Shown piece by piece: positions 1,259-15,566 of a stretch of DNA of 32,000 bases. Source of the stretch: Hyphomicrobium sp. MC1 (lineage in GTDB: Bacteria > Pseudomonadota > Alphaproteobacteria > Rhizobiales > Hyphomicrobiaceae); contig NC_015717.1 in assembly GCF_000253295.1 (NCBI RefSeq), forward strand, positions 3,188,575 to 3,220,574, read 5' to 3'. Numbering within the stretch: the stretch's first letter is position 1; each line of letters begins with the position of its first letter. The notes under the pieces are model-generated. The model had not been told where the DNA came from. It did no database searches and was given only the letters and a program-made list of their open reading frames with translations. The position numbers were made by a program, and so were the translations under genes.

Positions 1259-1701
1259 GTTGGGCTCCGTGGCTATTGGCGCGCCCCGTTGGCGCTCCCA
1301 CTGCCCGAAGCCCCGCAACCGCGAGGCGACCTCTCAGATATTCAGCAAGCCAAAGGGCCGTCCGCCGATGTCCCTATACCAATGCGTCCTTTGCGACAGA
1401 AGTCGAGGTCTGATTTCGCTGTGGCGGCCAATCTCGGAATATCAGTTAAACAACTCTGTCAGTGCATTGGGTTTTAAGTTCGGTCGACAGACAGATTAAG
1501 ACGGCATCAGCCGACCGCATTGTCGCCGATAGCTGGGAAGCGCCGGTAATCCCCGTCCACACGTTGGAAAATCACGTTGATGACGATTGGCAGGTCCCCA
1601 TAAGGTCCAATATCCACGCAATCCATATGTGTCGGGGAGGATGCCGTCGACCAACATCATTATGATCTTCTGCAGTTTTGATTCTTTCATAGGCCATATT
1701 G

Positions 1702-3648
1702 ATGCGGCTCAAACGCGCCGAGATTTTTAATTACCGATCCATCAGACAGGCGACGATCGAATTCGGCGACCAGACCCGGCTGATCGGGGGCAACGGATGC
1801 GGAAAGTCATCCGTAGTCAAGGCATTGGAATTGTTCTACGCGCCCGCGAAAACAACAGTCTCCCGCGATGACTTCTTCGGCCGCGATGAAGCGAACGAAA
1901 TTGAGATCGCGCTCACCTTCCATGAGTTCTCCGACCAAGAGAAAGAGACGTTTAAGGGTCACATCACTGAGTCCGGGGAGCTAAGCGTTAGCCGCGTTTT
2001 CTCGGCGAATGGCGGCAAAAACAACGGCAAATACCACGGTGTGCAGCTCGCGTACCCGGCCTTCCAGGCTGTGCGCGCTGCCGGCAAGGCAGCAGAGAAA
2101 TCTGAGGCATACAAGGCGCTGCTTCCCGAACATCCTGACCTAGACAAGGGTGCGAAAACAGCAGCGGCAATTGAGGCTGCGATGGCCGCCTGGGAAGCTG
2201 CAAATCCTGAGAAATGCCAAGCGCTGCGAGACGACGGCCAGTTCTTCGGCTTTGAGGGCGTCGCACAGGGAAAGCTGTCCTCGTCAACCGCTTTCGTGTT
2301 CGTACCTGCCGTCAGGGACGCAGCGCAGGATGTCGCTGAAGGGAAAGGGACCCCTATTACCTTACTGATGGATCTGATCGTCCGGTCGGCAATAGAGGCG
2401 CGACCGGAGATCAAGGAGTTCAGGGCTAAGGTTGAAAGCGAATACCAGGCACTCACTGATCCTGCGAAGCTCACTGAGCTCGGCGGGCTTGCTACTACGT
2501 TGTCTGGCACGCTGAGCACCTACTATCCGGAAACTTCCGTAGAACTGGATTGGCTCCAACGGGATGCGCTGAAAGTGCCGCTGCCGAATGCAGCAATCCG
2601 GTTAAATGATGATGGCTTCTCTACGGCCGTCGACAGGACTGGGCACGGCTTGCAACGCGCGCTGATCTTAACTTTGCTCCAGCATTTGGCGACGGCCAGC
2701 ATGAAGTCGGAAGACGTCACTGAGGAGATGAGCGGAACTCCCACCGAACCCGATCTCATCCTCGCCATCGAGGAGCCCGAGGTATATCAGCACCCAACAA
2801 AGCAAAGGCATTTTGCTCGCGTCTTGGATTTGCTGAGCAGCGGCAAGCTAGCCGGTATCGGCAAGCGCATCCAAGTTATCTACTGTTCCCACTCGCCGAT
2901 GTTTGTTGCTATGGAGCAGTTCGACCAGGTGCGTCTGATGAGGCGCATTAAGAAGGAGGGGCAGAGAGAATCGGTCCCACATGCCGTTTCCCTTGCCGAT
3001 GTCGCGACGGAACTAGACGCCGCACATCAGGCGGAGGGCAAGTTCAGCGCAGATCGTCTGCGGAGTAGACTCCACATCATCGATATAGGTGTGGCCGAAG
3101 GGTTCTTCTCCACCGTCACCGTGCTTGTAGAAGGGCCGAGCGATCGGGCAGCGCTCCTCGCCGCGGCTAGATACCTCGGCAAAGATTTGGAGCAGAACGA
3201 AGTAGCTGTCGTCTCCGTCAATGGTAAAGCCAACATTGACCGTCCTGCCGCTGTTTTCCGCGGGCTTGGAATTCCGGTCTACGCTGTATGGGACTGTGAT
3301 GAGGGCACCAATGATTTTCGGCCCGAGACCAACAAGGCACTTCAACGCCTGTTCAAGACGCCCGAGGCCGAAATTGTCGACGCTGTTGACCGCATTACGA
3401 CGAATTATGCTTGCTTCCGCGTCAAGCTTGAGGAAACGCTGAAGGCAGAAATCGGCGCTGAATTTTACCGCAAAAAGATGGATGAGCTTAAGACTAAGTT
3501 CGAAATCACAAAAGATAACGATGCGCAGAAATCGCCTGTCGTGATGTTCGATCTTATCGTTGAAGCCGCTAATGCGGGCAATGTTCCCAAGACCTTGGTC
3601 GCAATCGTCGAGGCGGTGATTGCACTTCGTCCTACACCAGAAATATGA
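1702..3648 (+). CDS. OLD-family ATP-dependent nuclease (N-terminal ABC-type ATPase plus C-terminal Toprim)
   Basis: Walker A GGNGCGKS (1786-1809). ABC-signature-like GHGLQRAL. Walker B-like LILAIEEPEVYQHP. Toprim motifs VLVEGPSD (3121-3144) and WDCDEG (3289-3306). The track starts at TTG 1699 and the adjacent ATG 1702 is equally possible. Confidence 0.85.
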   Translation: MRLKRAEIFNYRSIRQATIEFGDQTRLIGGNGCGKSSVVKALELFYAPAKTTVSRDDFFGRDEANEIEIALTFHEFSDQEKETFKGHITESGELSVSRVFSANGGKNNGKYHGVQLAYPAFQAVRAAGKAAEKSEAYKALLPEHPDLDKGAKTAAAIEAAMAAWEAANPEKCQALRDDGQFFGFEGVAQGKLSSSTAFVFVPAVRDAAQDVAEGKGTPITLLMDLIVRSAIEARPEIKEFRAKVESEYQALTDPAKLTELGGLATTLSGTLSTYYPETSVELDWLQRDALKVPLPNAAIRLNDDGFSTAVDRTGHGLQRALILTLLQHLATASMKSEDVTEEMSGTPTEPDLILAIEEPEVYQHPTKQRHFARVLDLLSSGKLAGIGKRIQVIYCSHSPMFVAMEQFDQVRLMRRIKKEGQRESVPHAVSLADVATELDAAHQAEGKFSADRLRSRLHIIDIGVAEGFFSTVTVLVEGPSDRAALLAAARYLGKDLEQNEVAVVSVNGKANIDRPAAVFRGLGIPVYAVWDCDEGTNDFRPETNKALQRLFKTPEAEIVDAVDRITTNYACFRVKLEETLKAEIGAEFYRKKMDELKTKFEITKDNDAQKSPVVMFDLIVEAANAGNVPKTLVAIVEAVIALRPTPEI

Positions 3649-3697
3649 GCTGCATTCCCCTTATGTAGCGGAAGTCATTGGCGGAGGGTAATTAGTC

Positions 3698-5107
3698 ATG
3701 AATGAAATTATCTGCCCGCACTGCGGGAAGGCGTTCAAGATCGATGAGTCCGGATACGCCGATATCCTGAAGCAAGTTCACGACAGCGAGTTCGAGAAGC
3801 AGCTGCACGAACGGCTTGAATTGGCCGAGCAAGACAAACGAAGCGCCGTCGAACTCGCCCGAACTAAGGTCGCCAGTGAATTTCAGAACACATCCGCAGC
3901 CAAAGACGCTGAAATTCAGGAACTGAAGTCAAAGCTCGAGGCCGGTGAGGTTGCGCGGCAGCTCGCCGTGACTCGGGCGCTAAGTGCCGTGGAAAAGGAG
4001 CGCGATTCGCTAGCGAACGAACTTACCCAGGCCAAGAATGACAAGAAAGCCGCTTCCGAGCTGGGCGAGGCAAGATTAGCGAACGAATTGCAGAAGGCAG
4101 TCAGTACGAAGGACGCGGAGATCCAGGACCTGAAGGCCAAGCTTGCCGCCGCCGAAGTTGCCCACAAGCTCGCGATCAACGAAGCTGTCAATGTAGTTGA
4201 AAAGGAGCGCGACGTACTGAAGAGCGGCGTTGAGCGAGCGGAGCTTGAGAAGCAACTCGCAGAAAAGGCGCTGAAAGACAAGTACGAAACGCAGATAAAG
4301 GATCGGGATGACGCGATCGAGCGCCTCCGGGACATGAAGGCTCGACTGTCGACCAAGATGGTTGGCGAAACCCTTGAGCAGCACTGCGAAACTGAGTTCA
4401 ACCGCATTCGCGCGACGGCGTTTCCGAGGGCATATTTCGAGAAGGACAACGACACGCGGACTGGCAGCAAGGGCGATTACATCTTTCGTGACTCGGACGA
4501 GTCTGCCACTGAGATCATATCGATTATGTTCGAGATGAAGAACGAGAGTGATCGCACCACAACGAAGAACAAGAACGAGGACTTTTTAAAGGAACTCGAC
4601 AAGGATCGCACCGAGAAGGGTTGTGAATATGCGGTACTGGTCTCCCTGCTCGAACCTGACAGTGAACTTTACAACACCGGGATCGTTGACGTTTTTCATC
4701 GCTATCCGAAGATGTACGTCGTCCGACCGCAGTTCTTTATTCCAATCATCACGCTTCTGCGGAACGCCGCAATAAACTCCCTCAAGTACAAGTCGGAGCT
4801 GGCGCTCATCAGGGCGCAGAATATAGATATCACTAACTTCGAAACCCAGCTTGAGACATTCAAGACTGGATTCGCAAAGAACTATGACCTCGCGTCCAAG
4901 CGTTTCCAAACGGCGATCGACGAGATCGACAAATCGATCGACCATCTACAGAAGACCAGGGATGCCCTAATTGGCGCCGATCGGAACCTTCGTCTTGCGA
5001 ACGACAAGGCGCAGGACGTTACGCTCAAGAAGCTTACTCGAGGCAACCCGACGATGGCAGCCAAGTTTGCCGATCTTAAGGACAATGGCCCCTCAGATGC
5101 TGGATGA
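3698..5107 (+). CDS. DUF2130-family protein: N-terminal CPHC Zn-ribbon-like motif, long coiled coil with a 69-aa tandem duplication, C-terminal PD-(D/E)xK-like nuclease fold
   Basis: N-terminus [27 protein letters not shown] and the overall layout match DUF2130 as I recall it. Putative nuclease triad is D260 (GDYIF) and E279-x-K281 (MFEMK). GGAGGG Shine-Dalgarno lies 8-13 nt upstream of the ATG. The gene starts 49 nt after the OLD gene. Confidence 0.8.
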
Positions 5108-5315: not shown

Positions 5316-6704
5316 TCATCTGCTAGGCAGTTGACGGGCCTTGAGTTGAGAGGGGTATGCCACCTGATCTCCTGCGTCCCGATCAGTGCGATCTTCGCTG
5401 ATCACCTTAAGGGGTATGGCGCCGGCAACAGTTGATCGCTCAATGGCAATATCTCCTCCGACGCTTCCAAGAAACCCCCGCAGCTTGTCGAGATCTCCAC
5501 ACCACTGAACTTCGACATCACGGTCTCGCGAGCGGTCGCGCGGTACACCCTGAGGCGCAAATGCGACAATCCGCATTTGCAATCTCTCGGCTTCAGGCGA
5601 ACCATTGATCTCAAGGCCGAAGCCCGGCGTATTCGCGTGCCGCATCACGACGGCGTCGCCCTTGGCGAAAGCTGTCGCCATGCCTTCTTGTACTTCATAG
5701 CCTAGGCTTGACAGGCCTTGGAGGATCGCCTTTCGGCGCGCTTCAGCGGCCAACCGGTTAATCTCTGATGTTACGAGAACCTTCGCGGACGCGATCAACT
5801 CATTGGCCTGCGCTGCATTTGAGGCAGTGATGGCGGTCTTTAGGTTGGCAGCGAGCGCTCTCGCGGCTTCGGAGTTGAAGCGCCGAACTTCAGCTAATTG
5901 CTCGCGAAGTTTCGCGACTAGATAGTTGTTCTCTCGAGCCACACGAGTAGCGTCAGCCAAATCCGCGACGAGGCTATCGGTTAGCAATCGCTTTCGAGTC
6001 TGTGAAGGTTCGGCACCGATTGCTGTTATCCGCTGCTCAAAGATTTCCCGGTTAGGGCCACCTAAGGAACCGAGTTCAACGATAAAGTTGTCGATACGTT
6101 TGAGGCGCTCGTCTTCATGGTTTTCGAGATTTTCGACACGCCATTTAGCGAAACTTGTTGAACGCTCGCCGGCCGCAAGTCTGGCTGCTATCTCACTCGT
6201 CCGCTCCTGCGCCACACTGGTCGCACTATTGCCGGCGAGAACGGCGTAGGCATCAGCAAATGCACGATCCGTATCCGCATTGTTTTCATTTCCCGCAGCA
6301 ATTTCCTCAAGTAATGAGAGCAGCTCTGTCGACACATCCTTTCCAGCGGTCCGTAGCTTGGAAATCACTGCGTTAGCCGCCGCGCAACGCCTGCGCTTTC
6401 TTGTCCGCTTCGCCGCTGCCCTCTCAATCGCTGCGGCCAGCCGAGCCTGCGCATCTTCCTCTAAGAACTTGATTTCTTCCGGTACTGCTTTTTGAAGATC
6501 GAGGAATGCGTTCGCATCCAAAAGCGCGCGGAGTTCATCCCGCCGCTTGTGAACGGCGGCAATGTCCGCTTCGTTAATTCCGTTGGCGCGTTTCCCAGAT
6601 TCCGTCCAGCCCTCTATCGCGGCGTCAAGCCGAGCGAGATGCTGCTCGCAGATAGCTAGAATTTCCTCTCTCGTTACAATCCGAACGACTTTTGGACCGC
6701 TCAT
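5316..6704 (-). CDS. Hypothetical 462-aa protein, predominantly alpha-helical/coiled-coil with a small C-terminal domain; fourth gene of the candidate system
   Basis: The start is taken at MSGPKVVRIVTREEIL (ATG 6704-6702), which forms an ATGA overlap with the stop (6703-6701) of the giant gene. A GGGAGAG Shine-Dalgarno lies just upstream. The 65 residues the track adds upstream would overlap the giant gene. Ala/Glu/Arg/Leu-rich heptad-like sequence with no domain I can name. Confidence 0.7.
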   Translation of the reverse strand: MSGPKVVRIVTREEILAICEQHLARLDAAIEGWTESGKRANGINEADIAAVHKRRDELRALLDANAFLDLQKAVPEEIKFLEEDAQARLAAAIERAAAKRTRKRRRCAAANAVISKLRTAGKDVSTELLSLLEEIAAGNENNADTDRAFADAYAVLAGNSATSVAQERTSEIAARLAAGERSTSFAKWRVENLENHEDERLKRIDNFIVELGSLGGPNREIFEQRITAIGAEPSQTRKRLLTDSLVADLADATRVARENNYLVAKLREQLAEVRRFNSEAARALAANLKTAITASNAAQANELIASAKVLVTSEINRLAAEARRKAILQGLSSLGYEVQEGMATAFAKGDAVVMRHANTPGFGLEINGSPEAERLQMRIVAFAPQGVPRDRSRDRDVEVQWCGDLDKLRGFLGSVGGDIAIERSTVAGAIPLKVISEDRTDRDAGDQVAYPSQLKARQLPSR

Positions 6705-9700
6705 GCCGCTCTCCCGCCTGGATTGCTCAGCGCCGACGCGATAGCCGCGCGGAGGCGCTCCTGCTCGTAGGTTCGACGCGCATACCATTCGGCACACGAG
6801 ATTCGATGAAGTGAACGCACCGTGTTCGAGAGAATTCGCGGCCGCCATAACTCGCGCGCTCTGGCGCGGGCAAGAATTTGGTGTTGGGGTGCATCGCACT
6901 CGATGCCAATGCCATAGAGACCGGTGTTTGGGTTCACAATAGCTAGGTCGACGTTGAATGCGTCGTCTTGGTCACCCGGGACGGGATCATAACCGATTTC
7001 TCTGATGAAGCGCTCTACCGAGCGCTTGAATGCATCGCCTAAATCGTGATCCCGCCCCTCCGTCCGCTTGCCCTCTGTTACCATCCGTCGACAGAGTGAT
7101 CGCGCGGCATCTAGATCCTGTGCGGTAATGGCTCGACCGAATTCCAGATATCCTTGGAGGTAGTCACGCTCAGTCATTGGCGGCCGATGCGTTGACAACA
7201 TGTCGGACACGTCGCCAATTGGGATTGAAGTCGCAACAATGACTTTTCTCTTGGCTCGCGTGATCGCGACATTCAAGCGACGTCGGCCGCCATGCTGGCC
7301 AAGCACACCAAAGTTTCGGCGAAACGAGCCATGCTCGTTGCGCCCAAACGTCGTTGAGAAGATGATTACATCGCGCTCGTCGCCTTGCACATTTTCGACG
7401 TTCTTGACGAAGAAACCAATGTCTTCGTGATCCTGTGTCCGCTGCTGCTCTTCGATATAGGCCCCTCGGAACGCCTCGTCTTCTTCTGCTCGTTCTTCAA
7501 GGCGGTCCTCGATCAAATCGGCCTGCTTACGATTGAATGTTACGACTCCAATAGAGGGGCGTCGTTGCTGGGGTTCCGACCAATAGTCTGCGAGGAGGCC
7601 AACGATGCGATCTGCTTCCTCCAAGTTGGTTTGCTTGGAATAGGTGCCGTTAACGTGTACGATTTCGATCGGGCACTGTTGCAGCACAACCGAGTCGGGG
7701 TGTTGGATAGGGACGTTCAGCCGATTGCCGTAAAATGCTGCGTTAGAGAAGGCGATGAGCTCTCGGTAGGCGGACCGATAGTGAACTTCGAGCATGGTTG
7801 TCGGTAGCGACACTCGAGCCAGATTTAGGAGATCTGGACAGTCCTTGATCTCACGGCGGTTCCAGGTTTCCTCTAATGCTTCGCGGGCGCTTTCACTTAG
7901 CGCTGTATCATCTACATCAACGTCAAGATCTTCCTCATCGTCTTCAATGCGCCCCGCAAAGAACGACGTCGGCGGCATCTGTTTTTCATCGCCACTCACA
8001 ACCGCAATTCCCGCCCTAAAAAGCGTCGGAAGTGCATACTCGATGGGCATCTGCGATGCCTCGTCATAGACGACAACATCGAACAGTCCGGGCGTCAGTG
8101 GGAAGATTCGGCTTGCCACATCTGGATTCACCAGCCAAACTGGCCGCAATTCAAAAAGTCCGAGATCCCGTCCGTTTTCAATGAGATCGCGAATACTAGA
8201 TCGCAACACACCGTTCGCCGCGCGTAGCCGCGTAATACTTGTCCATGTCTGCTGCGAGCCCTGAACCTGATTGTTGTCGACGCCATCGGCCAAAAGGCGA
8301 CTATTGAGGACGCGGATTTTTTGATCGGCATCAGCGAGTGATTGAATTTTTGTTTCTATCTCGCCCTGGTCCATGAGCAACGATGGTTCACGTTCCTCTA
8401 GCGCAGCTTTCAACGCTAGGCGGGGCTCACGAGCGATGATCCGCCGAACCATGGCGGTAAGTTCGCTTGTTGGTAGGATCTCTAGCGGTCCCTCAACTTC
8501 ACGCAAACACTCGAACACTGCAAGGACCATCCCGTCTTGCCCTGCCACGCGCCGACGGAACTCTTGAAACGCCTCCACCGTCGGCAAGGCTCCAGCAATC
8601 GGTCCAACCCGTGCCGTGTTCGACTTGCCCATTGCAATTGCTGATTGACAGGACGACGACCACTTTTCTTCGAACCAGCTCCCAAGGGCCTCAAGTGCGG
8701 CCGCGCTATCCGCTCGTGCTTTGCACCGCTTGATTGCCTGTGCCACCTCTTCAAAGAATATCGGTAACGCATGGTTCTTGGTTGCCTCAAATGCCATATT
8801 CGGCTGAGGTCCTTGAGCGAGCATATCGGCGACCGCAGCGACGTTTCCAAGCGACTGGCGTAGGTCCGCGGTTAGACGTCGAATGCTGCTGATTGGTAGA
8901 TCGCCGACCGTAGGATTATCAATGTCAAGATCTTCAAGGATCCTCTGCAGCCGCTGCTTAACAGCTCGTAGCTCGCGCTCAAATCGTATCGCCGCGTGCA
9001 ATAGCGCAACGTCATGTTTTTCTCCCAGCTTATGATCGCGGAGAAAGCGCCTGAGCTGCCTGAGCGCGGTGTACCTAAAAGGGCTCAGTCGGCTGATAAG
9101 CGACGTCGAGGCAAGCACGCGGCCGGATGCGCGCTCAAGTTTGGAAAAGATTGTCCCGTCAAGGGAGAGGAGAACGCGCTGGAGCTCGACCGGCGGTGCG
9201 GAAGAGGCCTCCTTGTCCAATATCGTAAGAAGTTCGTCGAGTTCTAAGATCAAGCCTCTTCCATCCTCCTTTTCAGTCAGGACGGCGGAGACGGGCCGGA
9301 ACAAGGAAATCCAGCGCGCCAGATTCTCTCGCTGTTCGCCGCGCTGCGCGGCGACCACATCAGTTGAGTCGGAGAGCCACGTGAGCGTGTCGCCGGGGTT
9401 CTCGACTTCAAAAACGGCGGATCTCTCTGCAATTATATGTACGCGCATTGCTTCGACGGAGGCAAAGCGTTCGAAGTCCTCGCTAAACGCGCGCACCGTC
9501 GCAGGATCGGCTTGAAATATCTTTAGTACGCGCAGAGGGCTTCGTTCAAATTTCGAGGGTAGCCAATAGCGCGCCAGCGAGGCACACGCCTCCTCAATAG
9601 CAGTCCGCTGTGCGGGAGGTAGAGATTGGAGAAGGCGACGAAGTTTTGGTACATCAATTGGCGGTACCCCAGCGGCTTCTAGATCAACCAGTTCGCTAAG

Positions 9701-12700
9701 CAGTGATCTGTAACTAGAACCCGTTTGTTCGTCCACGCGATGCACCGCGTCGTGACGGCGATCGAGCTGTCCCTCTAACTCTTCGATCAAAGTCGCTAGT
9801 TGTTTCCTCCGGTTGTTTACGCTGCTTATGCCTGATGGAGGATCGCGGCGTAAATTGAAGACCTGATCGCGGATCATTTGAAGGACCGGCTGCCGGTCTT
9901 TATTTATGTCCGTTATCATCACGCAACGGTCTTGCAGCCCCTCCTTCTCAAGACGCTTTCTCACGACATCTATTGCCGCAAATTTCTGGCAGACGACTAG
10001 TACGCTCTTCTTTCGACCTATAGCGTCGCCAATAACGTTGACGATGGTTTGACTCTTGCCGGTCCCTGGAGGACCTTCGAGCAATAAGCCAGGGCTATGC
10101 CGCGCCTTGAATACGGCGTCCTCTTGCGACGGATCACTCGCCGCACTGAAGAAACGATCTACTTCACGGGGCGCGGTGTGGGTGATCTCCTGTTGCACAG
10201 GATCGGAGATACGAAGTAGCGCGGCCAATGAGGTGGAATCAGGCGCTCTCGACTTCAGGCGTCTCAAATCATCGACAATGGCCTGGCCGATATAAGAGAG
10301 ATGAAAGAGAACAGCTGATGCCGTGACCCGTCGCGCGAAAGGAGGAAGTTGAACATCTCGAGCGGGCAGTTTCGAAATCTGGCGACCCGTTGATGTTGCT
10401 AGGGTCGCAAATGCATCCATTATGTCCGGTGGATTTAGAGTTGATCGACCGAGAAGTTCGTCGATTAGCTCTCGCCACCTGGCCATTTCCTCGATTCCGA
10501 CGATGCCCTCGAGTGCAGGATTAATTCGAACGTCCTCGCGTTCTCGATCGAAGGCGATCGTCACATCACCCCGAACGCCTGTTGCGACATCCACGCGCAC
10601 TGGCCAAAGAAGGACCGGTGCTATCCGAGGCTTGGTTGTCGATCTTCCATCGCGAGCTACAAGAAATGGAAATCCCAGATAAAGCCCGTCAATACCCGTA
10701 TCTCGCTTGTATATGACCGCGCTCTGAACAAGGTGCCGCAATCGGCTTTCTGGCGAGCCCTCAGAAATTGCGAATATAGCTGGGTCAACACTAAGTTTCT
10801 GATCTGAACGTCGCAGAACATGGGAAACAATATCGTCTGGACTTCGCCGTTGTGTACCTAGCTCCGAGACGTCAATGCGCGGTGTCGTCTTACCAATCGT
10901 CATCCTAACCAGCGGCCCTCGCGCTAGCGAAACCGTTACCTTCTTCTCAAAATATTCGAGAATACGCTGGTAGTATTCGTGCTTCGGCGGCTCGAGCCAA
11001 TGTTCCGCAGGAATTGCTAGAAGCGCTAACGCCCGAGCAATTGGCAGACGCCGCTCTAAGCGGAGCTGTTCGACCCACTCGTCCGCGCGAGAAATATTAC
11101 AGCGCGCTAGATCTCCGGTCCGCTTCCGCACCTCTGCGATAAGGTTGCTGCGGGAAAGCTCAAGAGATTGGTCCGCGATCATGGGATCAAATCCCAAAAT
11201 GCCGGCGCGTTGTGCCAGTTGTGCGGCCTCTTCGATGACTTCATCCCTGCTTCGGAAGAACCCGGTATCCGCGGCTAGAAGGATGATTAAATCTTCTTCC
11301 GAAGACTGGCGTCGTTCCATCAGGCTCGCGATCCCGGCATGTTCGGTGTCGGGAAAAAGCCGCCGCTTCGCATCCCATTCGGATGCGAGTTGTGATCGCG
11401 ATGTGGAGAGGAGATAGGCGCGTAACGCAGCTTCTTCCAATTGGATTTCTAGAAGCCTTGCCTTTTCCCGTACAGCGGTGGCGCGTACTCTAAGACGGGT
11501 TAGCCATACTTCCGAGCCCAGAACTTCAAGTATGTCCGGTGCGGGACCATCAATCAGCTCGTAACCGAGTTCACTATTCGTGCGAAGCCAGGGCGGGTTG
11601 ATGATGTCGCCCCGGAACGTGAGGGGCATATTTTCGTTGAGGAGCTTAAGAGCAAGAGACAGTCGAAAGTCATCATGGAGACCATCTCGTCGTGCGACCT
11701 GACGCAACGCCGATGTCGTGCCGCTGGGCAATCCGACCTCAGCGGACCAACTCGCAACTTCGCCGCGCATCAGTAGGTCTCGGGCCTCATCCCAATACTC
11801 GGAGCCAGCGGCTTCGAGGGCGAACCGTATAGGACTCGTATGTGTTTTGCCGCCGAGAACAATCGTTGGGAGTTCAGCAGATTCGCTCTGGCCGACATTT
11901 ACCTCGGTGGGCAGCTCAACGGGCTCCCCGTCGAGACAGGCTTTGAGTTGTTTCCAACCCCACCGTTGGGACTGATCTCGTATCAGCAGACCCCGGAGAA
12001 GAGTTCGAAGTTCGCCCGGCAGGTCCTCTGGAATCGGGACGCCGGTCGCAAGAGCATGCATCAAGAAAACGCGGGGGTTGATCCCATCGAAACAGCGACC
12101 TTCCGTAATCTGTTCGAGCAAGATCATGCCTAAGCTCCACCAGTCCGAGGCGGAAGCAACGGCACCGATGACTGCTTCCGGCGCGGTATATCGCGTCAAT
12201 TCAAGTGGAGCGACGATATCGAGATCGAATTCGGACAAGCGTGCGGACTCAAACCCCGTGATAACGAGATCGAGCGGATCCTCGGCTCGAATGAGAATGT
12301 TAGGCGGCCTTAAATTCCGATGGCGAAGGCCGGCTTCAGCGAAATCCCTGAGTGCTGTTCCGATCTCCAAGGCAAGCGTACGAACGGCTTCAATCTGACA
12401 GCCTGACGGAGACCGGTCTGCGAGCGAACCCGTCTCCATGTTCTCGCACACATCGTAGGCGCGATCACCCCAACGACCGGTTGTTATGAGCTCGGGAATA
12501 TGATCGCGTGGGAGACGTCGAAGCAATGCATAAACGGATGGATCGGGTTCAGAGCCTATTGCATAGAGTGTGAGGACAGCCGACTTATTCCTATCTGCTT
12601 TGGTTGCAATGAACCGTTCGACTGCGGGCCCTGTCGTCTCTAAGCGACGTTCTAGATGCCAACCATCGATCGTCGCTGGCGCCGGCATGTCTTCATCAGA

Positions 12701-13021
12701 ATCCGGACTAGCTTCATCTGCTTCGTAATGCGATTGAGCTTCATTGAAGCCGCTCGGTGTTACAACATCGGCGTGACACACCGGGCAAATGAAATCCCCC
12801 GCTGTGATCGGATGCCCATTTGGACAGGTTGGGCCTGATGAAGTTGTATTTGCTGCCGGCACACTCGTGAGTGGTTCCGGACGCCAGCCAGTTGCCCGAA
12901 TGGGCTCCTCGGAGATCAGCCAAGGCTCGAAACCTCTTTCAATGCAACCTTGGCATAGAACTTCGCCGAGGCCGCGCTCGGTTTCGCAACTCGGGCACCA
13001 TCGCATCCGACTTAGCGACAA
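6701..13021 (-). CDS. Giant 2106-aa multidomain protein: two Zn-ribbons, pseudokinase, DUF4011-like region, Upf1-like SF1 helicase (AAA_11/AAA_12 type) with a large insertion, C-terminal REase (MTES_1575/DUF559-like) domain
   Basis: Zn-ribbons: CPSC...CQGC (aa 9-26) and CPNGH...CPVC (aa 66-82). Kinase fold aa ~118-365: HRNLRPPN at nt 12322-12299, YTAPE, SDWWSLGMILLEQITG. GFPFLV...APVLLWPV is DUF4011-like (aa ~780-810). Walker A GPPGTGKS at nt 10075-10052. Motif II DEASQ at nt 8065-8051. Further helicase motifs: SGDEKQMPP, HYRS, VTFNRKQ, VENVQGDERDVIIF, LNVAITRAKRK. C-terminal VDLAI...GIECDAPQH...RISCAEWY (aa ~2020-2080). TTG start at 13021 is preceded by GGAGGA with a 6-nt spacer. Alternative ATG at 13006. 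Confidence 0.9.
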   Translation of the reverse strand: MSLSRMRWCPSCETERGLGEVLCQGCIERGFEPWLISEEPIRATGWRPEPLTSVPAANTTSSGPTCPNGHPITAGDFICPVCHADVVTPSGFNEAQSHYEADEASPDSDEDMPAPATIDGWHLERRLETTGPAVERFIATKADRNKSAVLTLYAIGSEPDPSVYALLRRLPRDHIPELITTGRWGDRAYDVCENMETGSLADRSPSGCQIEAVRTLALEIGTALRDFAEAGLRHRNLRPPNILIRAEDPLDLVITGFESARLSEFDLDIVAPLELTRYTAPEAVIGAVASASDWWSLGMILLEQITEGRCFDGINPRVFLMHALATGVPIPEDLPGELRTLLRGLLIRDQSQRWGWKQLKACLDGEPVELPTEVNVGQSESAELPTIVLGGKTHTSPIRFALEAAGSEYWDEARDLLMRGEVASWSAEVGLPSGTTSALRQVARRDGLHDDFRLSLALKLLNENMPLTFRGDIINPPWLRTNSELGYELIDGPAPDILEVLGSEVWLTRLRVRATAVREKARLLEIQLEEAALRAYLLSTSRSQLASEWDAKRRLFPDTEHAGIASLMERRQSSEEDLIILLAADTGFFRSRDEVIEEAAQLAQRAGILGFDPMIADQSLELSRSNLIAEVRKRTGDLARCNISRADEWVEQLRLERRLPIARALALLAIPAEHWLEPPKHEYYQRILEYFEKKVTVSLARGPLVRMTIGKTTPRIDVSELGTQRRSPDDIVSHVLRRSDQKLSVDPAIFAISEGSPESRLRHLVQSAVIYKRDTGIDGLYLGFPFLVARDGRSTTKPRIAPVLLWPVRVDVATGVRGDVTIAFDREREDVRINPALEGIVGIEEMARWRELIDELLGRSTLNPPDIMDAFATLATSTGRQISKLPARDVQLPPFARRVTASAVLFHLSYIGQAIVDDLRRLKSRAPDSTSLAALLRISDPVQQEITHTAPREVDRFFSAASDPSQEDAVFKARHSPGLLLEGPPGTGKSQTIVNVIGDAIGRKKSVLVVCQKFAAIDVVRKRLEKEGLQDRCVMITDINKDRQPVLQMIRDQVFNLRRDPPSGISSVNNRRKQLATLIEELEGQLDRRHDAVHRVDEQTGSSYRSLLSELVDLEAAGVPPIDVPKLRRLLQSLPPAQRTAIEEACASLARYWLPSKFERSPLRVLKIFQADPATVRAFSEDFERFASVEAMRVHIIAERSAVFEVENPGDTLTWLSDSTDVVAAQRGEQRENLARWISLFRPVSAVLTEKEDGRGLILELDELLTILDKEASSAPPVELQRVLLSLDGTIFSKLERASGRVLASTSLISRLSPFRYTALRQLRRFLRDHKLGEKHDVALLHAAIRFERELRAVKQRLQRILEDLDIDNPTVGDLPISSIRRLTADLRQSLGNVAAVADMLAQGPQPNMAFEATKNHALPIFFEEVAQAIKRCKARADSAAALEALGSWFEEKWSSSCQSAIAMGKSNTARVGPIAGALPTVEAFQEFRRRVAGQDGMVLAVFECLREVEGPLEILPTSELTAMVRRIIAREPRLALKAALEEREPSLLMDQGEIETKIQSLADADQKIRVLNSRLLADGVDNNQVQGSQQTWTSITRLRAANGVLRSSIRDLIENGRDLGLFELRPVWLVNPDVASRIFPLTPGLFDVVVYDEASQMPIEYALPTLFRAGIAVVSGDEKQMPPTSFFAGRIEDDEEDLDVDVDDTALSESAREALEETWNRREIKDCPDLLNLARVSLPTTMLEVHYRSAYRELIAFSNAAFYGNRLNVPIQHPDSVVLQQCPIEIVHVNGTYSKQTNLEEADRIVGLLADYWSEPQQRRPSIGVVTFNRKQADLIEDRLEERAEEDEAFRGAYIEEQQRTQDHEDIGFFVKNVENVQGDERDVIIFSTTFGRNEHGSFRRNFGVLGQHGGRRRLNVAITRAKRKVIVATSIPIGDVSDMLSTHRPPMTERDYLQGYLEFGRAITAQDLDAARSLCRRMVTEGKRTEGRDHDLGDAFKRSVERFIREIGYDPVPGDQDDAFNVDLAIVNPNTGLYGIGIECDAPQHQILARARARELWRPRILSNTVRSLHRISCAEWYARRTYEQERLRAAIASALSNPGGRAA

Positions 13022-13668
13022 CTTTTATCCTCCGATGTTGCGACCCGGTGGCCATCGGCTTCGAGCAACTCACGAAGACGCGCGAGATCGCCGCGGTCGG
13101 GAATGCCAGCGAACCACACGGCACCACCCTCTTCGAAGGCTATGTCTAGTCTGCGGTCTTGTTCGCCTCGCGGGCCATCGTAATTGGCAAAGCGGCGTCG
13201 GCCGAGCTGCGTTAAAGGAAATAGACGTTGATTGTCACTACCGCGCAGACGGCGCGTTTGCGCCGTTGACCGTACGAAAGGATCGGTCACGATTGCATCG
13301 ATAAGGCCCGACAGCCGCTCCAAATGCGGGCCAATTGCTTCAAAAGAATAGCCTGAGAAAACCAAAATGTCCGCGGAGCATTCTAGTCTCAGAAGGCGGA
13401 GCAAAGCCTCAAGCGCCGCGACCTGATCGAACGGCTCACCTCCGGAGATCGTAATGCCATCTGCCTGCGACAACCAAGGTTTGATTGATGCAAGAACTTC
13501 GTCAATGGCCACGGTTGCCTTCGCGAATGTCCAAGTGTCCGCGGAAATACAGCCCGAACACCGAATTGAGCATCCCTGGAACCAGATGCCAATCCGCTTT
13601 CCAGGACCGAGGGCCGTGACCGGAAAATGGAGCCGTGAAAGACCGACAGCGATAGGTATGTCACTCAT
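13012..13668 (-). CDS. Small radical SAM protein of the NrdG/PflA/QueE-like (4Fe-4S single-cluster, activase-like) type
   Basis: GIWFQGCSIRCSGC gives C33-x3-C37-x2-C40 (nt 13572-13549). ITISGGEP is a SAM-binding motif (aa 72-79). Only 218 aa. ATGA overlap with the upstream AAA+ gene and a 10-nt overlap with the giant gene start. Confidence 0.85.
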   Translation of the reverse strand: MSDIPIAVGLSRLHFPVTALGPGKRIGIWFQGCSIRCSGCISADTWTFAKATVAIDEVLASIKPWLSQADGITISGGEPFDQVAALEALLRLLRLECSADILVFSGYSFEAIGPHLERLSGLIDAIVTDPFVRSTAQTRRLRGSDNQRLFPLTQLGRRRFANYDGPRGEQDRRLDIAFEEGGAVWFAGIPDRGDLARLRELLEADGHRVATSEDKSCR

Positions 13669-15509
13669 GATGATCTCGACAGTCGCAGCGAAGTCACTGG
13701 CCCTTTTTCCAAATCGGCAATTGTGAGCCGACCGTCCCGCCCGTCCCCAAAATCGAACAGTGAACGTGCAAGCGGATTCACAAGATGGCGTTCGACCTGA
13801 TTTCGGATGCCACGGCCGCCGTTGGATAGATCTTCAAGGCATAACGCGGCGAGCTTCTGACGTGCGATATCACTCATCGAGATCTGGATGCCGCTTTGCG
13901 CAAGATCGGCCAAGGTGGAAACTACCATCGAATCAAAAATCTGAATCGCAACCTCCGGGCGGATAAAGTCGAAGACTATAATGTTTTCTCCAATCCGATT
14001 GAGGATTTCTGGCCGGTTTAATGTGATCTTAAAATGACGATCAATCTCTCTCCTGACGCCAGCCCTAACTTCATCGAATGGTTCGCTCGGCGAGACATTT
14101 AAGGTGCGTCCGCCGGATGGGTCGTCGCGGTAGATTCCGAGATTAGAAGTGAAGACGATAAACGCCTCTGAAAAATAGACTCGATCACCTCGCCCGGATG
14201 TGAGTACGCCGTCGTCGAGCACTTGCAGGAATTTATCGAGAATGCGGGGATGCGCTTTCTCGATTTCATCGAACAGCACCACGCAAAATGGTCGCTCGCG
14301 AATGGCGTTCGTTAATTCTCCGCCAACGTCATAGCCGACATAGCCGGGTGGGGCGCCTATCAATCTTTGATCCGAATGCTCTGCGCCAAATTCAGACATG
14401 TCAAAACGAATATACGCACTCTCATCACCGAAGAGCAGAGAGGTTATCGTTTTGGCGAGTTCAGTTTTTCCCACGCCAGTGGGACCGGCCAAGAAAACGA
14501 CACCCCGTGGACGTCCTCCTCGGCGTGGAGCCCCAACTCCCGTAACCGCACGCTTAATAATGTCCAGCACATGCGTGATGGCGTGGTCCTGGCCCTTGAC
14601 CCGCTCGCGAATAAAATCAGGAGCCGACTCGATCTTGCGTCTATCGATCTTGCGCCAAGGGTCTTCAGTCACTCCCACTTTGTAACGTCGCACGGCATCA
14701 CCGATACGGTCGAACGTGACCCCCTCGCCGCGTCCCAATTGCGCAATTGCATTGAGATCCGTCAGCAGCAATCCGTCCGTCATATCCACGAACGCATCTG
14801 CAGCTGACCGAATTGCATCCGAAGTAGCTCCGGCCCCTCCCGACATTGTTTTCACGAGTGTCTGACCGAGGGATTTTCGCACTCGATGGTCGGGCTTTGG
14901 GATCGGTATGTGCCGAAGGCGCGCGTTATTAAGTAGGAACCAATCTGGAAGATCGCCCTCCTTGTCGACGATCCAAAGGATAGAATTGAAGAATGGTGTT
15001 CGCTGTGCGCCAATTGGCTTGGGTCGAGCTGTATGGCACAGCACTTGTGCTCGCAGGAACAGCTGATGTTCATGCGGCTGGAGGAATTCATTCCGTACAA
15101 TTAATCGCGATGCAAAATCGACGATGAGCGCGATTGGTCCATCGGGAAAAGAGACAATCTTTTCGAGTGTTGCCGAGAGTAAATCGAGGCCCCCGGGGGC
15201 TGCACCATCGGCAGGCGTTAAGCCGAGTTGGGTCAGAAGAGTTTCGCTACCAGCGGGCGATCCCAATAAAGGCTCGGCCAGCCCGAATCCCGTCGTAGGC
15301 TCGTATGTGACTACACGTCGATAACCCGCGGCGGTGAGTTCCGTTGCGACAAGGGTCAGCAGCGGTACTGCAGCGATAGCGCCCGGAGTGGTTTCGGTCG
15401 TCTGAAGATCCCGAATGTTACCTGTCAGGACAAACTGGCTCTTCAGCGGAAGGAAACGCTGGAGATCTCTAAGCCAACGCGGCTTTTCGTAGATGTCGAC
15501 GTCAGCCAT
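13665..15509 (-). CDS. AAA+ ATPase: ClpA/ClpB D2-type module (AAA_2 plus D2-small-like C-terminus) preceded by a degenerate, P-loop-less AAA-like N-terminal module
   Basis: Active module: VFLAGPTGVGKTELAKT (Walker A nt 14486-14463), IGAPPGYVGYDVGGELT, VVLFDEIEKAHP (Walker B), FIVFTSNLG, RPEILNRIG. N-terminal half: FVLTGNIRDL in the Walker A position, ALIVDFASRL Walker B-like, RLRHIPIPKPD. ATG at 15509 is preceded by GAGG and a G-run. The TTG at 15557 in the track is less likely. Confidence 0.85.
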   Translation of the reverse strand: MADVDIYEKPRWLRDLQRFLPLKSQFVLTGNIRDLQTTETTPGAIAAVPLLTLVATELTAAGYRRVVTYEPTTGFGLAEPLLGSPAGSETLLTQLGLTPADGAAPGGLDLLSATLEKIVSFPDGPIALIVDFASRLIVRNEFLQPHEHQLFLRAQVLCHTARPKPIGAQRTPFFNSILWIVDKEGDLPDWFLLNNARLRHIPIPKPDHRVRKSLGQTLVKTMSGGAGATSDAIRSAADAFVDMTDGLLLTDLNAIAQLGRGEGVTFDRIGDAVRRYKVGVTEDPWRKIDRRKIESAPDFIRERVKGQDHAITHVLDIIKRAVTGVGAPRRGGRPRGVVFLAGPTGVGKTELAKTITSLLFGDESAYIRFDMSEFGAEHSDQRLIGAPPGYVGYDVGGELTNAIRERPFCVVLFDEIEKAHPRILDKFLQVLDDGVLTSGRGDRVYFSEAFIVFTSNLGIYRDDPSGGRTLNVSPSEPFDEVRAGVRREIDRHFKITLNRPEILNRIGENIIVFDFIRPEVAIQIFDSMVVSTLADLAQSGIQISMSDIARQKLAALCLEDLSNGGRGIRNQVERHLVNPLARSLFDFGDGRDGRLTIADLEKGPVTSLRLSRSS

Positions 15510-15566
15510 CCCCCAAACCTCAGCGACCAATACCCCACAATGCTCATAGGCGAGCAAAGGATATCA

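Follow-up and report, generated by a model that had tools for sequence, protein, structure and literature searches.

The window analysed here is a stretch of 32,000 nucleotides from the genome of Hyphomicrobium sp. MC1 (NCBI RefSeq assembly GCF_000253295.1, contig NC_015717.1, positions 3,188,575 to 3,220,574 of the forward strand), and nucleotide coordinates given below refer to this window. On its minus strand lies a translationally coupled four-gene operon, the third gene of which encodes a giant helicase-nuclease. Our subject is a domain near the N-terminus of this protein which has the fold of a Hanks-type Ser/Thr protein kinase and which an earlier note, made from the letters alone, had proposed to be a pseudokinase. 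A Shine-Dalgarno sequence, GGAGGA, precedes the TTG start codon, and the first 10 nt of the gene lie within the upstream gene. The protein is composed of two Zn ribbons, the kinase-like domain, an all-alpha domain, a DUF4011 domain, a superfamily 1 (SF1, Upf1-like) helicase with a large insert and a restriction endonuclease (REase) domain of the Vsr-type MTES_1575 family, in that order. Pfam places Pkinase at residues 166-360 and DUF4011 at residues 750-838, in addition to AAA_11, AAA_12 and the C-terminal MTES_1575, a family described before (PMC3710099). The features of the protein, with the evidence for each from sources that include hidden Markov model (HMM) alignments and AlphaFold2 (AF2) models with their predicted local distance difference test (pLDDT) scores, are the following.

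6701-13021, minus strand: giant helicase-nuclease open reading frame, 2,106 amino acids, TTG start (Pfam architecture).
11909-12673, minus strand: kinase-fold domain, residues 117-371, predicted pseudokinase (Pfam, phmmer, AF2, Foldseek, hhalign, HMM alignment).
12569-12571, minus strand: Thr151 at the position of the β3 (VAIK) Lys (HMM alignment of AVLT with AVLK of the nearest canonical relatives).
12299-12322, minus strand: catalytic loop HRNLRPPN, residues 234-241, with Asn236 (codon AAT) for the HRD Asp (hhalign).
12176-12256, minus strand: activation segment, from GFE (residues 256-258; nt 12256-12248) to APE (residues 280-282), with Gly256 at the DFG Asp.
12944-12997, minus strand: Zn ribbon 1 (C9, C12, C23, C26; pLDDT 85-95 for residues 1-50).
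12776-12826, minus strand: Zn ribbon 2 (C66, H70, C79, C82; near-invariant among 121 homologues).
10742-11908, minus strand: all-alpha domain, residues 372-760, directly C-terminal of the kinase-like domain (pLDDT 90.9).
7232-10135, minus strand: SF1 helicase core (AAA_11, AAA_12), its motifs I and II separated by a long insert (Pfam).
6740-7030, minus strand: MTES_1575 (Vsr-fold) restriction-endonuclease-like domain (Pfam).

Residues 117-371 form a true Hanks-type kinase fold, as the earlier note had claimed, with similarity far beyond chance. The Pfam Pkinase model (PF00069) scores 55.2 bits on the giant protein against a gathering cut-off of 31.7 (E 8.8e-15), and a phmmer search matched 690 kinases of the PDB. 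For residues 1-420, an AF2 model based on 75 homologues has a mean pLDDT of 82.8 and the expected order of secondary structure elements; Foldseek aligned it to kinases such as ULK1, PDK1, S6K1 and PknA at E values of about 1e-13 with target-normalised template modelling (TM) scores of about 0.75. The residues of the structural core, namely the APE Glu (E282), the D293-W-W-S-L-G sequence and R353 of subdomain XI, are present and invariant in 202 orthologues.

The motifs read previously from this minus-strand reading frame all lie where they had been placed: LETTGPAVE at residues 127-135, AVLT at 148-151, HRNLRPPN, GFE, YTAPE at 278-282 and RW at 353-354; SDWWSLG occupies 292-298. When the family profile was aligned by hhalign with the two canonical kinases of the MC1 genome, N236 matched the HRD Asp, N241 the catalytic-loop Asn and G256 the DFG Asp; the catalytic-loop Asn is retained as Asn241 in the MC1 protein. 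Even at mact 0, hhalign aligned only the αC and C-lobe region, and the N-lobe register was taken from the HMM alignment instead. There, the nearest canonical relatives read AVLK, YVLK or AVFK opposite AVLT, which puts T151 at the β3 Lys. A register with L150 at this position, obtained by phmmer against the VAVK of Lck, was dropped in favour of T151 given the AVLK of the nearest canonical relatives; neither register has a Lys. The replacements of Lys by Thr151, of the HRD Asp by Asn236 and of the DFG Asp by Gly256 thus agree with those first proposed, with equivalences that rest on sequence and profile alignment and not on active-site geometry. The αC acid is absent as well: the candidate positions 162, 163 and 165, in a register uncertain by about 2 residues, are S, V and A.

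The Gly-rich loop had been described as degenerate, and LETTGPAVE indeed fits neither GxGxxG nor the SGE[AS]DL variant of the phosphate-binding loop. Intact relatives also lack GxGxxG, carrying SGE[AS]DL[FWY], so that the missing Gly-rich loop alone is no evidence of inactivity. The MC1 genome encodes two canonical Hanks kinases outside the window (loci L003 and L004, with K, HRD, N and D[FL]G), so the dead domain is not the only kinase fold of the organism. By eye, the long N-terminal region of the L004 protein looks PP2C-like.

With residues 1-420 as the query, 848 or more proteins of about 2,100 amino acids and the same architecture were retrieved; in a scan limited to one genome per species, 360 species had a relative. 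Substitutions were counted in 202 aligned close orthologues. Position 151 is T in 199 of them and never K, and the adjacent position 150 is L in 200; loss of the Lys is fixed in 200 of the 202. At the DFG Asp (position 256), G occurs in 184 sequences and D in 3, which makes a loss of the Asp in 199 of 202. The catalytic-loop Asn (position 241) is replaced by T, S or A in 174 sequences (about 86%) and kept as N in 20. These last two positions vary freely, with T, S, A, N or V at 241 and G, S, D, N, A or E at 256. The HRD Asp (position 236) is D in 197 of 202, and HRN was found only in the MC1 protein (P0001; P and L numbers are our designations for proteins and loci), in P0002 and P0003, its two closest relatives, and, as a separate case, in P0019. 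Because T151 and G256 are near-fixed and HRN is confined to the MC1 clade and P0019, the loss of the β3 Lys and the metal-binding Asp is an old, family-wide trait and D236N a recent addition in the MC1 lineage. Of the three substitutions on which the pseudokinase proposal was built, T and G are therefore shared by the orthologues; the N is not, being limited to MC1, P0002 and P0003 and to P0019, where it arose independently.

Several further observations came from the same survey. A Glu or Asp at DFG+2 occurs in 10 of 45 Lys-less giants without the HRD Asp versus 2 of 158 that keep it (raw counts). The combination of a DFG+2 acid with HRD loss, which might reflect an exchange of charges in the cleft, is represented by E258 (12248-12250) and N236 (12314-12316) in MC1 and is also seen in P0019, P0139, P0161, P0179, P0181, P0216 and P0244. 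We do not claim compensation between the two, as a test on phylogenetically independent pairs was not significant. A reading of V-I-[ST]-G-F at the DFG position as a glycyl-radical motif was rejected, since 18 of the 202 sequences have S, D, N, A or E in place of G256. Longer variants with a dead-kinase N-terminus also exist, of about 2,700 (P0139, P0179, P0187) and about 3,400 amino acids (P0161, P0174), many of them with HR[SA] and GFE; in P0139 the helicase motifs I and II are much further apart.

Sister giants with the same Pfam architecture possess an intact-looking kinase domain. When the domain profile was run against 1.84 billion representative proteins, 900 proteins were found at E < 1e-30, and the intact type (xV[FL]K, HRDLKPAN, DF[GS] and APE with an SGE[AS]DL[FWY] loop) includes P0200, P0270-P0299 (several of them from named Verrucomicrobia), P0315, P0320, P0327, P0328 and P0332. 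One of these, P0271, sits in the same four-gene operon (locus L095). The sister clade (P0271/L095, P0200, Verrucomicrobia) shares with the MC1 protein the architecture, the operon, the Zn ribbons and the C-lobe signature EPLDLV, SDWWS.G and LL.GLL.R...RW. The two groups differ at the active site: the sister clade keeps xV[FL]K, HRDLKPAN, DF[SG] and SGE[AS]DL, whereas the MC1 clade has T for the Lys, HRD or HRN, T, S, A or N for the catalytic-loop Asn, and GFG or GFE. A third state of the domain is found in the same operon of Hyphomicrobium denitrificans 1NES1 (L097), with the β3 Lys changed to Arg, HRD to HGN, and DFA. This operon is preceded by a WYL-domain gene, and ParDE and phage-tail genes are nearby.

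Shorter kinases, with Sel1 or RCC1 repeats as fusion partners, carry the intact-type signature too. The nearest canonical relatives of the domain (P0215, P0227, P0224, P0248, P0265 and similar proteins) are kinases of 700-1,400 amino acids in which SGE[AS]DL[FWY] replaces GxGxxG; of the two that were scanned for domains, P0215 has Sel1 repeats and P0227 has RCC1 repeats and an FtsK-gamma domain. Judged by this signature, the SGE[AS]DL[FWY] kinases seem to form a separate clade of bacterial kinases. When metagenomes were scanned with P0200, a giant of the intact type, only distant kinases came up.

In a maximum-likelihood tree of 128 kinase domains, rooted on shorter, non-giant active kinases, the intact giants are basal and paraphyletic. 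A clade of 92 domains is wholly degenerate (support 86 in the Shimodaira-Hasegawa-like approximate likelihood ratio test, SH-aLRT) and contains an inner clade of 81 (support 98). The MC1 protein is nested in the HRN triplet (support 99), whose sister P0004 still has HRD. According to this tree, the dead (Lys-less) clade is derived. For 94 Lys-less giants, at least 24 changes of state are needed at the HRD Asp.

These data bear on the possibility that the domain is an atypical enzyme that catalyses a reaction with non-canonical residues, be it a WNK-like rearranged phosphotransfer or a nucleotide chemistry like that of SelO or SidJ. Some pseudokinases are known to have hidden activities, 197 of the 202 close orthologues keep the HRD Asp, and there are conserved charged residues that are not needed for folding, namely R134, E135 and R136 in β2, D266 and D268 in the activation segment, and R245. 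The Arg at position 134, present in 176 of 202 orthologues, falls at the WNK β2 Lys position according to our own motif register, which is not a structural superposition. The earlier note had named a relocated, WNK-like Lys as an observation that would speak against its proposal; in the same register, the MC1 protein has V134 at this position, and the DFG Asp of the WNK-like set is also absent. With V134, N236, T151 and G256, it has neither the canonical nor the WNK-like residues. Known active 'pseudokinases' keep the Lys and the metal-binding Asp, but the MC1 domain lacks both, including the pair of the SelO/SidJ type, and no Pfam or NCBIfam hits to SelO or SidJ families were obtained. The free variation of positions 241 and 256, together with at least 24 losses of the HRD Asp, fits a relaxed catalytic constraint. 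We thus regard an atypical enzyme as quite improbable.

What remains under constraint was established by comparing conservation in 36 intact giants with that in 55 representative dead giants. Conserved in the intact clade only are the P-loop equivalent (127-136), V149, K151, R154, R155, position 192, D236, K238, A240, N241, T275, T276 and A279, which are the nucleotide, metal and catalytic positions. Both clades conserve H234, R235, P239, R245, F257, S263, D266, L267, Y278, APE, SDWW, G298, R353, W354 and the Zn ribbons. The activation segment (family consensus GFGSARLSEFDLDIVSPLE) is almost invariant across phyla, with a near-invariant acidic core SARLSEFDLDIV.PLE, while AF2 assigns a pLDDT below 50 to residues 265-270; this low confidence fits a segment that may adopt an ordered state only when it is part of a complex. 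Compared with the orthologue of Hyphomicrobium zavarzinii, the kinase-like domain is 74.9% identical, the DUF4011/Walker A region 72.9%, helicase domain 2A 82.0% and the nuclease tail 64.3%. Because the identity of the kinase-like domain matches the helicase level, it is not the domain that is decaying but only its catalytic apparatus, and loss of the domain was seen in none of about 250 giants examined.

A kinase domain without the β3 Lys, the metal-binding Asp, the phosphate loop and the catalytic base is expected neither to bind Mg-ATP nor to transfer phosphate. The absence of the Lys, the DFG Asp, the HRD Asp and the αC acid, with constraint lost specifically at nucleotide and catalytic positions, therefore supports the earlier prediction that the domain is a pseudokinase and probably not a phosphotransferase. 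By its sequence it also fits the definition of the term, a kinase fold that lacks canonical catalytic residues and is maintained by purifying selection.

The earlier note had further suggested that the domain binds a ligand, a nucleotide or a partner and acts as a sensor or regulator. Nucleotide binding seems unlikely since there is no Lys, no P-loop and no set of metal ligands. A more specific form of this idea would be a non-catalytic nucleotide sensor that binds ATP or a signalling nucleotide without turnover, its occupancy serving as the switch, in the manner of RNase L or STRAD-alpha. Such nuclease-coupled, nucleotide-binding pseudokinases exist (RNase L), and the MC1 protein keeps the bilobal fold, the hinge Glu193 and a conserved small residue (A or G) at position 148. 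Yet constraint has been lost at the β3 Lys, the P-loop equivalent, the metal ligands and position 192, which is bulky in the intact clade, and the operon has no gene for making a signalling nucleotide among its products; we consider this explanation very unlikely. Partner binding is plausible, and so is a role of the dead domain as sensor or regulator.

A different view is that the domain is a structural remnant, which the giant protein retains solely for its folding, oligomerisation or spacing and which plays no sensing or regulatory role. Its catalytic residues decay repeatedly, no partner was found, and recognition could be carried out by the Zn ribbons and the all-alpha domain instead. The Zn ribbons proposed at the N-terminus are real: both are conserved in the dead-kinase and the intact-kinase clades of giants. 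In ribbon 1, 112 of 121 homologues have C32 as the fourth ligand; the MC1 clade uses C26 and has Glu at position 32 (residues 23-32; 12926-12955, minus strand). The all-alpha domain (372-760) gave no PDB fold match in Foldseek at E <= 0.001 and no hit in the full-length Pfam scan. A mere remnant is nevertheless difficult to reconcile with a sequence identity of 75%, equal to that of the helicase core, and with a domain that was never lost in about 250 giants. Moreover, the near-invariance of the surface-exposed activation segment across phyla points to an interface and not to packing, although AF2 confidence is low there. This explanation appears unlikely to us.

The remaining genes of the operon, and the genes adjoining it, are as follows.

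13665-15557, minus strand: operon gene 1, ClpB-D2-like AAA+ ATPase (upstream in 79 of 81 related loci).
13012-13668, minus strand: operon gene 2, NrdG/PflA-like radical-SAM protein (Fer4_12).
5316-6704, minus strand: operon gene 4, protein of 462 amino acids that has no family match, with an MSGPK N-terminus.
1699-5107, plus strand: OLD-family nuclease (AAA_15 and Toprim; PADLOC Old E 1e-56), then a DUF2130 protein.

The four genes and their order are kept in all 81 related loci as far as the contigs reach; the loci are spread over Alpha-, Beta- and Gammaproteobacteria, Acidobacteriota, Gemmatimonadota and Fibrobacterota. Gene 4 starts with MSGPK in MC1 and in 76 of 83 related loci, the intact-type L095 included (loci L001, L006-L085 and L095); this invariant extreme N-terminus suggests a peptide that may be processed, modified or docked. 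With an OLD nuclease next to it and with Hhe, ProA and PDC-S37 as relatives of the giant, the operon is most likely a multi-protein anti-phage or anti-plasmid system that has so far not been described.

Taken together, we consider it probable that residues 117-371 are a genuine pseudokinase that arose from an active Ser/Thr kinase and now serves as a non-catalytic docking or allosteric module, in an operon that would be an undescribed defence system. An ancestral active kinase would already have been present at the N-terminus of the helicase-nuclease. The lineage lost the β3 Lys (to Thr), the DFG Asp (to Gly), the P-loop equivalent and usually the catalytic-loop Asn, followed by the change of the HRD Asp to Asn in the small clade of MC1. 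The fold core, the C-lobe, the APE/αF region and the invariant acidic activation segment remain under strong purifying selection. The domain would no longer bind Mg-ATP or transfer phosphate; with the face that once bound the substrate and with the acidic activation segment, it may hold a partner, either another product of the operon or a protein of the invader, and in this way gate the helicase-nuclease. As the intact sister clade suggests, the ancestral domain would have phosphorylated a partner or the protein itself, and in the dead clade the binding step alone might suffice.

Four points weigh against this explanation. The charged residues R136, E135, N241, E258, D266 and D268, joined by R134 and D236 in most orthologues, may form an unconventional arrangement in the cleft. 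The HRD Asp, kept in 97% of close orthologues, could mean residual chemistry and not a structural role. No binding partner of the kinase-like domain was identified. Finally, the apparent orthologue of Pseudomonas aeruginosa is a core gene flanking a defence hotspot and not variable cargo (bioRxiv 10.1101/2022.11.11.516204).

A bolder version of the docking proposal is that the dead kinase is the trigger-sensing latch of a new immune machine, in which the groove and the acidic segment would hold an invader protein or the MSGPK of gene 4, and the ClpB-like unfoldase and the radical-SAM enzyme would act on the complex to release the helicase-nuclease. We give this little credence; if it were true, the series from intact through partly dead to fully dead domains in one operon would record how a phosphorylation switch became a pure binding switch.

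To our knowledge, few bacterial pseudokinases have an assigned role; their eukaryotic counterparts are well-studied regulators. New here is the evolutionary series from an intact to a dead kinase within one conserved operon. The family is large, with about 360 GTDB species positive in the scan and an apparent core gene of P. aeruginosa among its members, and the sister lineages with an intact-looking kinase are a built-in control for the role that a kinase fold plays after catalysis is lost. For a widespread four-gene operon the range of mechanisms is narrowed, as most members would not need phosphotransfer by the kinase-like domain.

No paper was found on a pseudokinase fused to a defence-type helicase-nuclease, and literature searches gave no description of the domain or the operon beyond a mention as a boundary of the hotspot cDHS1 in P. 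aeruginosa. The 'large DUF4011 gene' and the 'radical SAM protein' of the right flank of cDHS1 apparently belong to the same operon, with four genes in the same order. Over the N-terminus, the P. aeruginosa protein P0099, which we infer to be the marker gene, shares about 48% identity with the MC1 giant. In this species the apparent orthologue is very common, with two clusters of 3,452 and 2,367 member sequences. The cDHS1 paper uses both genes as conserved boundary markers, being core flanking genes; the kinase-like domain was not analysed in it (bioRxiv 10.1101/2022.11.11.516204).

Among defence-related proteins, the closest to the giant protein are Hhe (NF042953), the anti-phage protein ProA (NF058533) and the PADLOC candidate PDC-S37, which have the core of DUF4011, SF1 helicase and Vsr/MTES_1575 nuclease in common with it. 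Hhe reportedly originates from Gao et al. in 2020. PADLOC matched residues 962-2098 to model positions 294-1342 of 1550 of PDC-S37 (E 2.4e-140, a model for which no curated cut-off is given), and it also matched the helicase-nuclease part to Hhe (E 3.5e-66) and MkoA. The NCBIfam models gave 487.6 bits for ProA (E 8.5e-146, match to residues 750-2100 only) and 322.8 bits for Hhe (E 4e-96), below their cut-offs of 1500 and 2000. The matches to Hhe, ProA and PDC-S37 leave the N-terminal 750 residues of the giant (Zn ribbons, kinase-like and all-alpha domains) as well as the three partner genes uncovered.

The kinase-like part resembles Hanks kinases of defence systems. It matches the PADLOC model for MAD6 of MADS (E 2e-20), and PD-T4-6 models match as well; against the MAD6 cut-off of 460, the giant protein scores only 59. 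MAD6 of MADS, PD-T4-6, Stk2 and PglW of BREX rely on active kinases, whereas the kinase-like domain of the giant is predicted to be dead. A fusion of inactive S/T/Y kinase domains to a defence protein has been reported for DndF (PMC10853773). There, the dead copy accompanies an active one, whereas in the giant protein it stands alone.

In functional terms the closest likeness, by analogy and not by homology of the assembly, is to RNase L and IRE1 from antiviral or stress signalling of eukaryotes, which also combine a kinase-fold domain and a nuclease in one polypeptide in a context of immunity. The kinase fold of RNase L is catalytically dead, serves regulation and dimerisation, and keeps nucleotide binding. 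RNase L couples it to a KEN/HEPN RNase and ankyrin repeats, whereas the giant protein joins a kinase fold with a degraded nucleotide site to an SF1 helicase and a Vsr-type REase and is accompanied by three partner genes.

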